Virus record (IMG/VR): IMGVR_UViG_3300022932_000015
Span: 30,210-94,209 of that record
Direction: 5' to 3' (one strand)
Source of the DNA: a virus
Length of the DNA: 64,000 nt
The notes under the pieces were generated by a model. The model saw only the letters and a list, made by a program, of their open reading frames with translations, was not told where the DNA came from and did not search any database. Both the position numbers and the translations under genes were made by a program. This document shows positions 20,245 to 30,326 of the stretch, in pieces; position 1 is the first letter of the stretch; each line of letters starts with the position of its first letter.

Positions 20245-20257
20245 TTGTTTTAATTTG

Positions 20258-20646
20258 TGGAGCTGGACAGGTACGATCTGTCGTGTTCCATAATTCATTA
20301 TTAATTTTCTACAAGTTTAGCATATCTTTTTCTCCTAATGCAGGATATTTGATTCTTAATCAAAAAAGCAACACATTGGCTAGTTATAGTCTTCCTATGT
20401 GTGAAGTGGTTGACTTTCCAATATTAGGCTGCTAACTCTAATTCTGCAATTGGGGCAGATGTCAATTTAATGACTTTTGCTGAAGCGCTTTTTACAACTG
20501 CAAGAACATCAGCGATGCCTCCTACTTCGTTGGTTATTACAACATTGTCCGTTAGAACTTGAAACCATAGATTAAAGTGATAGATAACATCTCACTACTT
20601 GCTTATCAATAAATTATTACAGAGTCTATAGCCAACTCTCAGCCCC
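20258..20646 (-). ncRNA. ssrA: transfer-messenger RNA
   Basis: 5' GGGGCTG pairs with 3' CAGCTCC-A including the G3:U alanine wobble; T-arm GACAG-ATCGTAC-CTGTC; internal ORF ending ...AELELAA-TAA (stop 20424-20426); 389 nt. Confidence 0.9.
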
Positions 20647-20755
20647 AATTCTTTATACTTTACTTTAATCCCTTTTTACAATTAAGATACTAAGGATTGT
20701 TTAAAGAATTTATTTTTTACTATGTTAGTATAGTTAATATTATGTGTATTAAAAT

Positions 20756-20818
20756 ATAAGTAACTTGACTATTAGAATTGTAGTTGTTGTAATTCGAGTT
20801 GTTGAACACTAAACTACT
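20756..20818 (-). repeat. DGR template repeat TR2
   Basis: 63 nt, non-coding, AAC/AAT-rich; ungapped match to 20904-20966 with 15 mismatches, all at TR adenines. Confidence 0.95.
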
Positions 20819-20831
20819 AGAAGTTATAATA

Positions 20832-21281
20832 TTAACGTTGAATGATTTTGTATAAATGAGCATAATTCTTACCTACAAAATCAGAGGTTTTCTGATCTTT
20901 GAAATAAGCAACCTGACCAATAGAACAGTAGCTGCTGTAATCCGAGCTGAGGAACACCAAACCACCTTTTTTATCATTCTCATGATAAGGATACCATTTC
21001 TGTTGGTCATGATCAGTCCAATCTAAGATCCAATCTTCATTAAAGAATTTTTGTACTTGTTTTAATTGAGCAACTGCTACATGAAATTCTATCTCTTCTG
21101 GTGTGAATAAATTAGAAAAGTGCTCTGATTTTACTTCATATTCTTTCAAAGCTCTACATATACTTGGATAATCAGCTCCTATTTTGAATAAATCTGCGGG
21201 AGCATTTACTACCTTTTCTAGTTCCATTATTGTTGCTTTTAGCTCATTGATTTTTTCCTGAGCTTTCTTTTTATCTGTCAT
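20832..21281 (-). CDS. DGR target protein 2 (149 aa)
   Basis: Contains VR2; ATG overlaps the RT TGA; paralogue of target 1. Confidence 0.9.
   Translation of the reverse strand: MTDKKKAQEKINELKATIMELEKVVNAPADLFKIGADYPSICRALKEYEVKSEHFSNLFTPEEIEFHVAVAQLKQVQKFFNEDWILDWTDHDQQKWYPYHENDKKGGLVFLSSDYSSYCSIGQVAYFKDQKTSDFVGKNYAHLYKIIQR
20904..20966 (-). repeat. DGR variable repeat VR2
   Basis: Encodes GGLVFLSSDYSSYCSIGQVAY; TR2 in the same frame reads SSLVFNNSNYNNYNSNSQVTY. Confidence 0.95.
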
Positions 21282-22225
21282 AAGTATTTATTTTTTAAGT
21301 TTATACTATTACAATGAGATAACCATCCATTGTAGCTTGCTATTGATTTTTTATTATTATTTTTCCTGATCATTCTTATAAATCTTAGTTTTATACTCTT
21401 TCTCAGTAAAATATGTGTATGATAAGATTTATATCCAAGGAAATCTATTCCTCTAGATTTTACAGGAAATATTTGATAATTTGATTTTATTTTAAGTTTC
21501 AAATTTACATTTAGATATTGCTCTATCAAATGTAATATTCTGTGTAATTCTTGTTTATTGCTTCCCAATATAACTAAATCATCACAATATCTAAAATAGT
21601 ATTTTACTTTTAAAGTTTCTTTAATCCAATGATCAAAATAGCTTAAATAAAAATTAGCAAAATATTGAGATAGATAATTTCCAATAGGTTGTCCTTTACA
21701 ACTATCTATTATATTACTCAATAAACTCAGTAGATTTTTATCTTTAAATTTCTTGAGTAATAATTCTTTTAAAATATCGTTATCAATGTTTGGGTAGAAC
21801 TTTTTGATATCTAATTTTAAGCAGTATTGAGTCTCCTCTTTGTTTTTTAATGCTTTATTTAGAGAATTTAGACCTTTGTGTATACCTCTATTCTTTATAC
21901 AGTTATAAGTATCTTTAGTAAATGTTGATACAAATATAGGTTCTAAAATATTCATTATAGCATGATGTACTATTCTATCTGGGTAATAGGGTAACTTATA
22001 TATTTCCCTTTCTTTTGGATCAAAAATTGTGAATATTTTGTATTCTGACGTGTTATAGTTATTGTTTAATAGTATTTGATTTAAATTTAATATATTATTA
22101 TCATAGTTCTTGTCAAATTCTATTACGTCTTTATTTTTAGATTTACCAATTCTAGCCTTTTTATCGGCTAGTATTAAATTATCTATATCACAAATTTTAT
22201 TATATAAGTTACCTATTCGTTTCAT
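21278..22225 (-). CDS. DGR reverse transcriptase
   Basis: DRIVHHA, KLDIKKFYPNI, GQPIGNYLSQ (DGR-type SQ motif), YCDD, GIDFLGY; 315 aa with no maturase or endonuclease domain. Confidence 0.95.
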   Translation of the reverse strand: MKRIGNLYNKICDIDNLILADKKARIGKSKNKDVIEFDKNYDNNILNLNQILLNNNYNTSEYKIFTIFDPKEREIYKLPYYPDRIVHHAIMNILEPIFVSTFTKDTYNCIKNRGIHKGLNSLNKALKNKEETQYCLKLDIKKFYPNIDNDILKELLLKKFKDKNLLSLLSNIIDSCKGQPIGNYLSQYFANFYLSYFDHWIKETLKVKYYFRYCDDLVILGSNKQELHRILHLIEQYLNVNLKLKIKSNYQIFPVKSRGIDFLGYKSYHTHILLRKSIKLRFIRMIRKNNNKKSIASYNGWLSHCNSINLKNKYL

Positions 22226-22323
22226 CTTATACTTCTTAAGTCTCTTTCAATAGTTTACTAAAGACTCTTTAAGTTTGTTATCTTTTACCCAGTGGTATGG
22301 TTAATACTAATTAGTCTAAAATA

Positions 22324-22382
22324 TAATAAGTAGAGTAGTTAGAATTGACATTATAGTTGTTCACGTTATTCAGTACCTAACT
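22324..22382 (-). repeat. DGR template repeat TR1
   Basis: 59 nt, non-coding; ungapped match to 22472-22530 with 15 mismatches, all at TR adenines. Confidence 0.95.
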
Positions 22383-22395
22383 AAAACATTTAGTA

Positions 22396-22749
22396 TTAAC
22401 CTAAATATGAATTGTATAATTTTATAAGCTCATTTGCCATCACTCTTGCTGTATCTTCTTTCTTATAATAGTAAGAAGCAGAGAAGTGAGAAGTGACACA
22501 ATAGCTGTACACGCTACCCAGCACCCAACCATCTTCTTTAGAAAATCTAAAATATGGTAGATACTTATATTCATTACCATTGTTAAAGTCTGGTTCCCAT
22601 ATTTTGTCATCATTATCTAGATAGTTTTTTGCTTTGATTATCGTCTCTAAACTGTAAGATATCCAATCTTTCTTCCTTCTAAATTGATGTTCTACATATC
22701 TTTGATGACCAACTTTAAATAATATTTTCTCAGCTTCTTCTAAACTCAT
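22396..22749 (-). CDS. DGR target protein 1 (117 aa)
   Basis: Contains VR1; WEPDF...YKYLPYF motif paralogous to WILDW...QKWYPYH in target 2. Confidence 0.9.
   Translation of the reverse strand: MSLEEAEKILFKVGHQRYVEHQFRRKKDWISYSLETIIKAKNYLDNDDKIWEPDFNNGNEYKYLPYFRFSKEDGWVLGSVYSYCVTSHFSASYYYKKEDTARVMANELIKLYNSYLG
22472..22530 (-). repeat. DGR variable repeat VR1
   Basis: Encodes GWVLGSVYSYCVTSHFSAS; TR1 in the same frame reads S*VLNNVNNYNVNSNYSTY. Confidence 0.95.
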
Positions 22750-22754
22750 AATTA

Positions 22755-23150
22755 TTATTTTTCAGATTTTTCCTCTTTACTTAATTCTTTGATTTGTTTA
22801 TCTAAGAATGATGAGACTAACTCACTTGTTTGAGAAGGTATTTTACATATGCTTGTATCCTTTGATATCCAATCAATAGTCTTGCCCCCAGCTATAATTA
22901 ATATTGCTTCATTTTTAGATGGTGTGAGAGTTATGCCTATTATTGCAATACCAATTAGAATAAATGCCCATATTATTTTCCATCTGTTCTTTCTAGTGTA
23001 TATCTCATTATCATCTCCCTCTATATGATTTATAAACTTTATAAAGTAGAATAGTACCATCATTGCTATCCCTATAGTTAATATAGCATTGAACATTCCA
23101 TTTAAAGAATCTAGCCTTGTTAGCCAATATAATTTCCAATATATATTCAT
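22755..23150 (-). CDS. membrane protein
   Basis: Two hydrophobic segments; YWLTRLD and PSK motifs. Confidence 0.65.
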   Translation of the reverse strand: MNIYWKLYWLTRLDSLNGMFNAILTIGIAMMVLFYFIKFINHIEGDDNEIYTRKNRWKIIWAFILIGIAIIGITLTPSKNEAILIIAGGKTIDWISKDTSICKIPSQTSELVSSFLDKQIKELSKEEKSEK

Positions 23151-23363: not shown

Positions 23364-23480
23364 ATTTCATTTTTAAATTGTTATTAATGGTTATTATAAT
23401 AAACCCCTCTAGGAAACTGGAATAACCTAAAGGGTTTATTATACTGAAAGTAAGCTTAGATAAGCTTTACTTCTTTGTTG

Positions 23481-23551
23481 ATGCTCTACTAGGACTCGAA
23501 CCTAGATTAATTCCCGAGAGGAATTCTCCTATCCAGTTAGAGGATAGAGCA
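23481..23551 (-). tRNA. atypical tRNA, tentatively Glu(CTC)
   Basis: Acceptor TGCTCTA/TAGAGCA, D-loop AACTGGAT, anticodon arm AATTC-CTCTCGG-GAATT, T-arm CTAGG-TTCGAGT-CCTAG; 71 nt, no encoded CCA. Confidence 0.7.
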
Positions 23552-24220: not shown

Positions 24221-24619
24221 TTATAGTAAATACTTTGTAAAAGTCTGGAGAGTATTATCATACTTTATTCCTCCTGCTATTACATTTCCTGGTTCGCTTA
24301 ATTTTATACCTGATATTATATACCATTTATCTATTGGCGCATTCGTATCAATATATATTGTTTTAGATCTGTTTTTATAGCTAACTGTTACTTCATATAC
24401 AGAATTATACTCTAATACTGCTATGAAATTGTTGTTAATCATCATATTAGATGAACTATTATTAGTTTTGTTTACTATTAATAATTCAAACTCTTCTGAG
24501 TCTATAAATTTATTATCCACTTTTATACTTAAGTCAAGTTTTATAGTTTGTCCTATACTATTGAAGGATAATGCTACTAATGTGATTATTAGCATTAATG
24601 AAGTCATCATTTTTTTCAT
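24221..24619 (-). CDS. exported protein with Sec signal peptide
   Basis: MKK + hydrophobic stretch + SIG-Q cleavage-like site. Confidence 0.6.
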   Translation of the reverse strand: MKKMMTSLMLIITLVALSFNSIGQTIKLDLSIKVDNKFIDSEEFELLIVNKTNNSSSNMMINNNFIAVLEYNSVYEVTVSYKNRSKTIYIDTNAPIDKWYIISGIKLSEPGNVIAGGIKYDNTLQTFTKYLL

Positions 24620-24848: not shown

Positions 24849-25181
24849 TTAGTTTAGATATACTTTCCTAGAAGATTTTATTGTTCTATCTAGTGTATAT
24901 ACATTGTTGTTTTCATATTTCTTTAAAGCCGTAATTAGATTATGATTGAATCTTAATACATCTCTTCTTAGATGTTCTTCTTTGGCTTCATTCTCTAATC
25001 TTTTAGTTCTTGTAAATTCTACGTACTCTAATCTGTTTAGAGTTTGGCTAATTTCTTCACCTTTGTAGTTCTTTGCTTTTACTACTTCGTATTGCACATC
25101 TTTGTTTTTCTCTGATCCATGTACTGGAACTATTGATGTACCTAGAAATATTGTTGTTGCTATGAATTTATGTTTTCTCAT
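24849..25181 (-). CDS. hypothetical protein
   Basis: ORF track. Confidence 0.55.
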   Translation of the reverse strand: MRKHKFIATTIFLGTSIVPVHGSEKNKDVQYEVVKAKNYKGEEISQTLNRLEYVEFTRTKRLENEAKEEHLRRDVLRFNHNLITALKKYENNNVYTLDRTIKSSRKVYLN

Positions 25182-25968: not shown

Positions 25969-26274
25969 TTATATATTATCTCTTAGTATTAAGAGTTCAA
26001 TATCACAATATTTTGAGCATTCACCTACAAATCTTTTGTTATCATATATTTTAATAGTATCTATGTGAATATCTAATTGATAATCTCTTAGATGTACAAA
26101 ATCTTTATGATGACTGAAATTTACTCTGAATGTATCATCTTGTAATTTACAATTGAATACATCTGATGAATCAGAATATCTAAATTCTTCTGGAAGATCT
26201 AATATTGGTTGTTTTGGTTGTTGTTTACAACTAACTAGTATTGTAATTAGGAGTAATGTTAATATTGTTTTCAT
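25969..26274 (-). CDS. putative lipoprotein
   Basis: MKTILTLLLITILVS-C lipobox. Confidence 0.65.
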   Translation of the reverse strand: MKTILTLLLITILVSCKQQPKQPILDLPEEFRYSDSSDVFNCKLQDDTFRVNFSHHKDFVHLRDYQLDIHIDTIKIYDNKRFVGECSKYCDIELLILRDNI

Positions 26275-26934: not shown

Positions 26935-27381
26935 TTACAGCTTTTTTAAGTGTATTAGTTTACCACTTTTAGTCTTTATTATAGTCTCATTATTACTTGC
27001 AGAGTAATTAAAAGACAGATATAGCTCTTTTCTATATACACTATCAATTATATCTAGTGATGTATTTACATACTCTAGTTTATATTTTAATGTATCTTTT
27101 ATTGAGCTATATGGATTGTGGTAAAATCCTTTGAATTTGTATTCAAATTTTGCGTCAGCCATTATTGTATCTGTTACTCCAGCTGGATTATATATAAATT
27201 GATATATCCCCTCAAGGCAAGCTCCATACTCTCCACATTTTGAGATTGGTTTCTCTATTTGTGGTGTATTTGGTTCTTCAATAGGCTTAATTTCTTTTTT
27301 CTTGCAGCTAATCATTGTACATAACATCATTAATATTATACAGCTTATGATTAGGTTTAGTATTAACAATAGTTTTTTCAT
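26935..27381 (-). CDS. putative lipoprotein
   Basis: Hydrophobic leader then IS-CKKKE. Confidence 0.65.
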   Translation of the reverse strand: MKKLLLILNLIISCIILMMLCTMISCKKKEIKPIEEPNTPQIEKPISKCGEYGACLEGIYQFIYNPAGVTDTIMADAKFEYKFKGFYHNPYSSIKDTLKYKLEYVNTSLDIIDSVYRKELYLSFNYSASNNETIIKTKSGKLIHLKKL

Positions 27382-30033: not shown

Positions 30034-30326
30034 AGTACACCTGTGGTTAACACAGACCACCCACGAGGGACTTAGTTAAATAGTGGGTTAGAAGTTGGAT
30101 AATAGTCTGCAGACTTGAAATAATAGTCAAACATAGCTGGATGAAGTTTCTCCGATAGTGTAAAAAGGTTCTTTATAGAGGGATTAATACATTGGGAACA
30201 TGAGCTACAAGGTAGGCTTTTGAATTGACAAGACAAAGTTTCCATTAGGGCTAAATACTGGTATTATGAAATCTAAGAACTAATCCAAAAAGACGAGTCT
30301 AACTCTGAAGGGGAAAACTATGTTTA
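30034..30326 (+). ncRNA. candidate structured ncRNA, unidentified
   Basis: No ORF, higher GC than flanks, several complementary segments (see finding). Confidence 0.5.

Follow-up and report, generated by a model that had tools for sequence, protein, structure and literature searches.

A diversity-generating retroelement with two templates serves two small proteins encoded apart from the structural genes of a phage

A cassette with two targets, each with its own template

Diversity-generating retroelements (DGRs) are usually described as a phage means of retargeting tail fibres. We analyzed a DGR in a 64,000-nt stretch of viral DNA (the window; positions 30,210 to 94,209 of IMG/VR virus record IMGVR_UViG_3300022932_000015), the parts of which all lie on the minus strand in the order T1-TR1-RT-T2-TR2, that is, target, template repeat (TR), reverse transcriptase (RT), target and TR (Table 1). 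This layout is unusual for a DGR. The start codon of T2 overlaps the stop codon of the RT gene (ATGA), and T2 is translationally coupled to RT.

Table 1. Coordinates of the DGR parts and of a group of genes in the same arm. Positions are those of the window unless another stretch (L142 or L143) is named.
Feature	Position	Strand	Description
T1, target 1	22396..22749	-	117-aa open reading frame (ORF); short family form without the N-terminal helices
VR1 (variable repeat 1)	22472..22531	-	codons 73-93 of T1
TR1	22324..22383	-	non-coding template of VR1, inside the 170-nt gap between T1 and RT
Structured RNA between TR1 and RT start	22219..22302	-	Rfam RT-17 RNA (RF03020), sub-threshold
DGR reverse transcriptase	21278..22225	-	315 aa; GxxxSQ (GNYLSQ) and YxDD (YCDD) motifs
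T2, target 2	20832..21281	-	149-aa ORF, full-length family member
VR2	20902..20966	-	codons 106-127 of T2
TR2	20754..20818	-	non-coding template of VR2
Spacer past TR2	20650..20753	-	aligns with the spacer past TR1 (alignment A7)
NAMPT, pyrophosphokinase, nucleotidyltransferase and ligase genes, as a group	L143 4993-6582, 9092-10000, 3069-4199, 7223-8278; L142 16181-17263		

Each variable repeat (VR) lies upstream of its own TR, with an offset of 148 nt in both cassettes. VR1 and TR1 differ at 15 of 60 nt, and VR2 and TR2 at 16 of 65 nt. All 15 and all 16 mismatches fall on template adenines, of which TR1 has 22 and TR2 has 25; the probability of such a pattern by chance is about 3e-7 for the first pair and about 2e-7 for the second. 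Each TR contains seven AAY codons, and the proteins that can be reached by adenine substitution number about 2e12 for T1 and about 1e14 for T2. The sole reachable stop is an in-frame TAG in TR1, at which VR1 reads TGG (Trp). The homology between VR and TR stops abruptly, and no GC-rich block of the kind that forms a classical initiation of mutagenic homing (IMH) site is visible at the 3' ends.

We searched for further targets with the template adenines masked, at a tolerance of up to 6 additional mismatches for the window and up to 8 for the complete genome of 94,209 bp. Apart from the templates themselves, this returned VR1 and VR2 and no other VR anywhere in the genome. The genome has no DGR target besides T1 and T2, and the lack of a third match to either template indicates that no fibre or other structural gene is targeted. 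An original prediction, made from the sequence by eye, had noticed no TR match in the fibre genes, and the scan bears this out.

Variants of both proteins are encoded on a 6,123-nt contig from another assembly. The 117-aa variant of T1 (P0001) differs at 8 residues, all of which are adenine-templated and within the VR, and the 149-aa variant of T2 (P0003) differs at 6 residues, all AAY-templated. Outside the adenine-templated codons, P0001 is identical to T1 and P0003 to T2. The confinement of the differences to these codons indicates that both cassettes have been rewritten in natural populations. If the cassette were instead a relic, with old adenine-specific differences and a DGR that no longer works, the missing classical GC-rich IMH, the missing accessory gene (see below) and the in-frame TAG in TR1 would fit. 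However, the RT is intact, neither TR/VR pair contains a single non-adenine mismatch, and the second assembly differs at 8 and 6 adenine-templated positions with the rest of both proteins identical; among the explanations considered here, we regard a relic as the least probable. Taken together, these findings establish the element as a genuine, recently active DGR with two cassettes, each pairing a target with a private template, and without a tail target.

The reverse transcriptase and its RNA spacers

The RT matches RVT_1 in Pfam (6e-18) and phrog_1423 in PHROGs (2e-117), and is 60% identical to the RT of the crAss-like phage cr52_1. Between TR1 and the RT start lies an RNA that presumably represents the DGR RNA spacer: it matches the RT-17 RNA with 35.6 bits (E 2.6e-4), under the gathering score of 40.4. 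The spacers past TR1 and TR2 are conserved and share a stem with two compensatory changes (AGTCT/AGACT versus AATCC/GGATT, judged by eye in alignment A7), and Rfam gave no RT-17-like match in the spacer past TR2.

No Avd-like ORF was seen in or beside the cassette; Avd is not universal among DGRs.

As a separate observation, the RT genes of cr52_1 (L001 / L136) and of another crAss-like phage, cr56_1 (L002), contain 5-6 in-frame stops, 6 of them TAG in cr52_1. Stop-codon reassignment is known in some crAss-like phages, and these in-frame stops fit it.

Two small soluble paralogues

T1 and T2 are paralogues that share 30% identity over 64 aa (BLASTP, E 4e-4), and their common motif is kept in alignments A1 and A2; in sequence, they are not related to tail proteins. 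Pfam gave no family for T1, T2 or 70 homologues, and PHROGs gave a weak match of unknown function for T2 only. Neither protein contains a transmembrane (TM) or signal-like segment, the maximal 19-residue hydropathy being 0.59 for T1 and 0.69 for T2, and their pI values are 6.8 and 5.95, respectively.

We modelled T2 with AlphaFold2 (AF2) on an alignment of 70 sequences. The model (pLDDT 94.1) has helices at residues 4-26, 31-34, 38-45 and 61-81, then a long conserved loop, followed by a beta-hairpin (95-102 and 108-116), a loop and two C-terminal helices. In this model, the AAY-templated residues 111, 112, 114, 116, 117, 119 and 121 are located on the second hairpin strand and the loop that follows it. 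The original prediction had described the targets as small paralogous proteins of 117 and 149 aa with a shared core motif, no signal peptide or TM segment, and an additional coiled-coil-like segment at the N terminus of T2. These features were confirmed by the ORFs, the adenine-only TR/VR pairs, the alignments, the hydropathy values and the helix modelled at residues 4-26.

The suggestion of a minimal C-type lectin (CLec) fold, by contrast, received no support. Foldseek of the T2 model against the PDB returned nothing at E<=1e-3, the family profile described below found nothing under E 0.039 among PDB sequences, and hhalign of this profile against the CLec-type tail target of cr56_1 gave a probability of 0.14%. 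In BFVD the matches were all uncharacterised phage proteins, of which several came from crAss-like phages. A lectin relationship of T2 and its family was not detectable with the predicted structure or the profiles but may nevertheless exist; in LoVEphage and cr52_1, one template serves a tail protein as well as a family member (see below).

The DGR lies in the replication arm of the genome

The major capsid protein (MCP) is 35-39% identical to those of crAss-like phages, with Flavobacterium and Cellulophaga phages also among the matching records. Judged from its sequence, the phage that hosts the cassette is of the Crassvirales (crAss-like) type. No nucleotide-level match was found outside the RT gene in the phage-record collection.

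The plus strand carries TerL (32930), portal, MCP (38876) and, from about 42.5 kb, virion and tail-like genes, after which come ORFs of 3,602 and 1,212 aa. The minus strand carries a block of about 43 kb with genes for primase, Sak4, helicase, ATPase, DNA polymerase A and an HNH endonuclease. The DGR is located among small unannotated ORFs, about 5-7 kb from the upstream end of the minus block; the structural module is on the other strand, with TerL at a distance of about 10 kb and the tail-like genes at 20-27 kb. The original prediction had placed the targets more than 20 kb from the tail module and on the opposite strand, and had called this side of the genome the early arm. The distance and the orientation hold, and "early" is reasonable as a description of position in a block with DNA polymerase, helicase, primase and HNH genes. 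A scan for sigma-70 promoters gave the same result as shuffled controls and was uninformative on timing.

Several other features surround the cassette. A gene for a protein with two TM segments (22755-23150, phrog_3878) ends 6 nt upstream of T1. Further upstream, a tRNA-Glu (CTC) gene (23480-23551, minus strand) separates the DGR from a cluster of small ORFs, among which those at 24221-24619, 24849-25181, 25969-26274 and 26935-27381 (minus strand) have signal-peptide or lipoprotein-like N termini. Directly past the TR2 spacer is a tmRNA-like element (20255-20646, minus strand), which matches RF00023 over the full model length (E 5.6e-9) with 28.7 bits, under the gathering score of 47, and was not called by ARAGORN. 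In cr52_1, an annotated tmRNA lies about 2 kb downstream of gp91, a relative of T1 and T2 described below. The minus arm also encodes NAMPT, ribose-phosphate pyrophosphokinase, a nucleotidyltransferase, RNA ligase and DNA ligase (G000 15-30 kb). This set resembles NAD+ salvage and RNA repair, and possibly has a counter-defence role.

T1 and T2 belong to a large family that usually accompanies a DGR reverse transcriptase

We searched 1.84 billion proteins with a four-sequence profile of the shared C-terminal domain and obtained 1,946 cluster representatives with E<=1e-3, of which 356 had E<=1e-10. T2 matches the family profile with E 4e-45 and T1 with E 2e-20, T1 being 48% identical to member P0148. 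Most members are 120-200 aa in length, with the domain located C-terminally; about one in twelve of the top matches is a two-copy fusion. The bacterial genomes that bear the family are mostly those of Bacteroidota (Flavobacterium, Chitinophagaceae, Sphingobacteriales and Bacteroides), and the family recurs in Bacteroidota phages of gut and environmental samples.

Relatives of the domain are encoded on 151 IMG/VR stretches. A DGR RT, 55-66% identical to that of the window, was present within about 1 kb in 75 of the 82 related loci examined. Two or three family genes occurred together in 49 of 60 distinct loci, with a fusion in one locus; the first gene has a median size of 156 aa and the second one of 127 aa. 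In the prevailing layout, a single TR immediately upstream of the RT gene is matched by both VRs, and in L072 three targets depend on one TR. The split layout, with a target and a TR on each side of RT, recurs only in L003/L004, L007 and L016/L017.

A 98-aa ORF (phrog_19665) lies directly 3' of RT in 60 of the 82 loci (for example L013 5415-5711, L025 5879-6175 and L059 5792-6088), and is a candidate DGR accessory factor. It was found neither in the genome studied here (best tblastn E 0.9) nor in the loci with the split layout. The targets might themselves double as the accessory factor, replacing Avd or the 98-aa ORF and having a role in retrohoming and not in binding a foreign ligand, as could be suggested by the lack of an Avd-like gene beside the cassette, the absence of the 98-aa ORF from the genome, and the position of T2 directly after RT with translational coupling. 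Against this, family members are remote from RT in LoVEphage and cr52_1, and viral contigs (62% and 90% complete) carry some members with no RT found. Moreover, T1 and T2 are not basic, T2 is modelled as an alpha/beta protein of helices and a beta-hairpin, unlike Avd, which is a small basic four-helix bundle, and hypermutation of an essential cofactor would be self-defeating. We therefore rejected the targets as Avd substitutes and consider an accessory role very unlikely.

The neighbourhoods of the family genes are uniform in kind. Sampled neighbours were SbcC, NinB, a replisome organiser and a DnaC-like loader in the cultured Bacteroides phage Versailles, methyltransferases and RtcB in LoVEphage, and exonuclease VIII, a replication initiator, helicase, MuB-like and FtsK-like proteins in other phages; an SbcC-like recombinase, helicase, DNA methyltransferase and DNA polymerase were also among them. 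All annotated neighbours sampled were replication, recombination or DNA-modification genes, and a structural gene was never among them. These results indicate that T1 and T2 belong to a large family whose genomic context is consistently non-structural.

Family members in characterized phages share templates with tail proteins

We compared family members with 50,697 phage records. With T2, P0054 and P0062 as tblastn queries there was no match; only a 182-aa member from L042 gave matches, in LoVEphage and in crAss-like phages. The match in LoVEphage is the hypothetical protein QVQ57199.1. In Quimbyvirus, ORF 84 was reported as a second DGR target, distal to the structural module and on the opposite strand, with methyltransferases, a nuclease and a tRNA ligase as neighbours (Benler et al. 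2021, PMC8008677). The neighbourhood of QVQ57199.1 fits this description, and, as the same report states, the RT gene of LoVEphage is broken up over three frames. By hhalign, profile A3, with T2 as its first row, matches QVQ57199.1 over the full length with a probability of 99.1% (E 1.6e-18), which places T1 and T2 in the family of the published non-structural LoVEphage/Quimbyvirus target. The premise of the original prediction that characterized phage DGRs diversify tail proteins is accordingly out of date. ORF 84 was called C-type-lectin-containing (PMC8008677); the supplements give no text on the grounds for this label, and we could not confirm it for the family.

In LoVEphage, both targets are served by one TR. 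The VR of the tail-collar fibre differs from this TR by 13 adenine mismatches and 1 other, and the VR of the small protein, 15 kb away, by 19 adenine mismatches and 0 others. A similar arrangement was found in cr52_1, where gp91 (YP_010112135.1; NC_055888.1 83524-83928, L135 3977-4381) is a 134-aa family member (hhalign 98%) with a 65-nt VR; this VR departs from the TR of the tail-protein DGR, about 57 kb away, at 14 positions, all of them template adenines. The cr52_1 record does not annotate gp91 as a remote second DGR target. The use of one TR for a tail protein and a small protein in both phages indicates that the variable segment also works in a receptor-binding tail protein. In a quick, unfinished tree, RTs with tail targets were interleaved with RTs with small targets, suggesting that one RT lineage switched or added targets repeatedly.

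In Versailles, family member WAK79127.1 (L141 4863-5444) lies between the NinB/Orf and replisome-organiser genes.

Possible function of the targets

We propose that this working DGR diversifies non-virion proteins that are made together with the replication-arm genes and serve as hypervariable binders inside the infected cell, as the original prediction had suggested, a reading that we consider probable on the evidence of sequence and gene context. Each template would be transcribed with the operon, and the RT would copy the TR transcript into adenine-mutagenized cDNA that replaces its own VR, giving access to the protein repertoires estimated above. T1 and T2, which would be made with the replication-arm genes and take no part in the virion, would then bind variable partners in the cell. 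The likeliest ligand would be a fast-changing factor of the host or of a rival phage, such as a defence protein. A counter-defence role is our leading guess, based on neighbourhoods such as the methyltransferases and RtcB of LoVEphage.

The long and short forms may also work as a pair, another possibility raised in that prediction: a heteromer would be in keeping with their co-occurrence in most loci and with the existence of natural fusions. We used the two-domain natural fusion P0004 as a proxy for the T1-T2 contact, and the interface in its predicted fold was unreadable (pLDDT 72, pTM 0.45). A more specific version, in which a non-lectin DGR scaffold forms a long/short heterodimeric, antibody-like intracellular binder with two independently templated surfaces that neutralizes fast-evolving host-defence or rival-phage proteins, strikes us as conceivable but doubtful.

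Several points weigh against an intracellular role. Both "early" and "intracellular" are derived from gene position and the lack of export signals. The template sharing in LoVEphage and cr52_1 would be compatible with an extracellular or virion role of the targets. In addition, Versailles WAK79127.1 is annotated as a "tail protein", according to its record by HHpred against PHROGs; this label may be wrong, perhaps through similarity of the variable segment to tail-protein DGR targets.

The main rival reading is that the small proteins are virion-associated adaptors or adhesins, attached through the N-terminal helix to a fibre, the capsid or the tail tip, with genes that merely happen to lie away from the structural ones, and that they serve host recognition as in Bordetella phage BPP-1. 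What keeps it alive is that the variable segment and that of tail proteins are interchangeable, as in the two phages with one TR for both; in every phage DGR studied by experiment, receptor-binding proteins are diversified (PMC8144416), and the Versailles label would also fit. However, across unrelated phage backbones, all annotated neighbourhoods sampled place the genes on the non-structural strand, within replication or recombination blocks, the family profile has no similarity to the cr56_1 tail target, and the DGR of the window has no tail target at all. A virion adaptor therefore seems unlikely to us.

Alternatively, the targets might be released at lysis or exported by an unrecognized route, and act outside the cell, for instance by coating host surfaces or mucus or by blocking competitor phages. 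The variable segment that also functions in a tail protein and the two-TM protein gene next to T1 would suit such a role, but T1 and T2 lack a signal peptide and TM segments, and the sampled loci do not tie the family to secretion genes. We consider this distinctly improbable, more so than a virion adaptor, and favour hypervariable binding within the infected cell.

What stands out is that a whole DGR with two templates is devoted to two small soluble proteins encoded apart from the structural genes, and that their family of about 1,900 sequence clusters is without a Pfam model, a recognized structural relative or a known function. Should they function intracellularly, these proteins would represent natural programmable intracellular binders and a new front in the conflict between phage and host. 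Cultured phages with family members exist (Versailles, BI-TP1 and PV4-TP1), and the intracellular question is thus directly testable.

Comparison with known systems

BPP-1 (mtd-avd-TR-brt) resembles the present DGR in its adenine-specific mutagenic retrohoming from TR to a VR near the 3' end of the gene. We saw no counterpart of its single TR, Avd protein, GC-rich IMH or trimeric CLec tail-fibre target. Closer in phage type are the gut crAss-like DGRs (LMMB, cr52_1, cr56_1, epsilon and zeta), which have been described with tail-fibre or receptor-binding protein (RBP) targets only (PMC7290462, PMC11054128, PMC12386605). They share with our element the Crassvirales-type phage, a homologous RT and the lack of Avd. 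Their targets, however, are encoded within the structural block and are tail-fibre proteins or RBPs that have a CLec domain at the C terminus, whereas those found here are small and non-structural only.

The tandem cassettes of temperate Bacteroidota phages in IMG/VR have the same target family, RT lineage, long and short paralogues and replication or recombination neighbourhood. Their order is long target, short target, TR, RT and 98-aa ORF, and one TR serves two or three VRs, whereas in the window RT is flanked by two TRs.

In LoVEphage/Quimbyvirus, as here, the target is small, has no export signal, lies far from the structural genes on the other strand, and carries its VR near the C terminus. 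The LoVEphage target is 15 kb from RT and shares its TR with the tail-collar fibre, whereas both targets of the window flank RT and have private TRs. QVQ57199.1 also has an insert of about 25 residues before a 113-nt VR, as compared with VRs of 60-65 nt here. A small non-structural phage DGR target has thus been published once already, briefly, for Quimbyvirus. What is new is a phage, crAss-like by its sequence, in which a DGR with two independent TRs, a 148-nt geometry and no accessory gene serves only small non-structural proteins.

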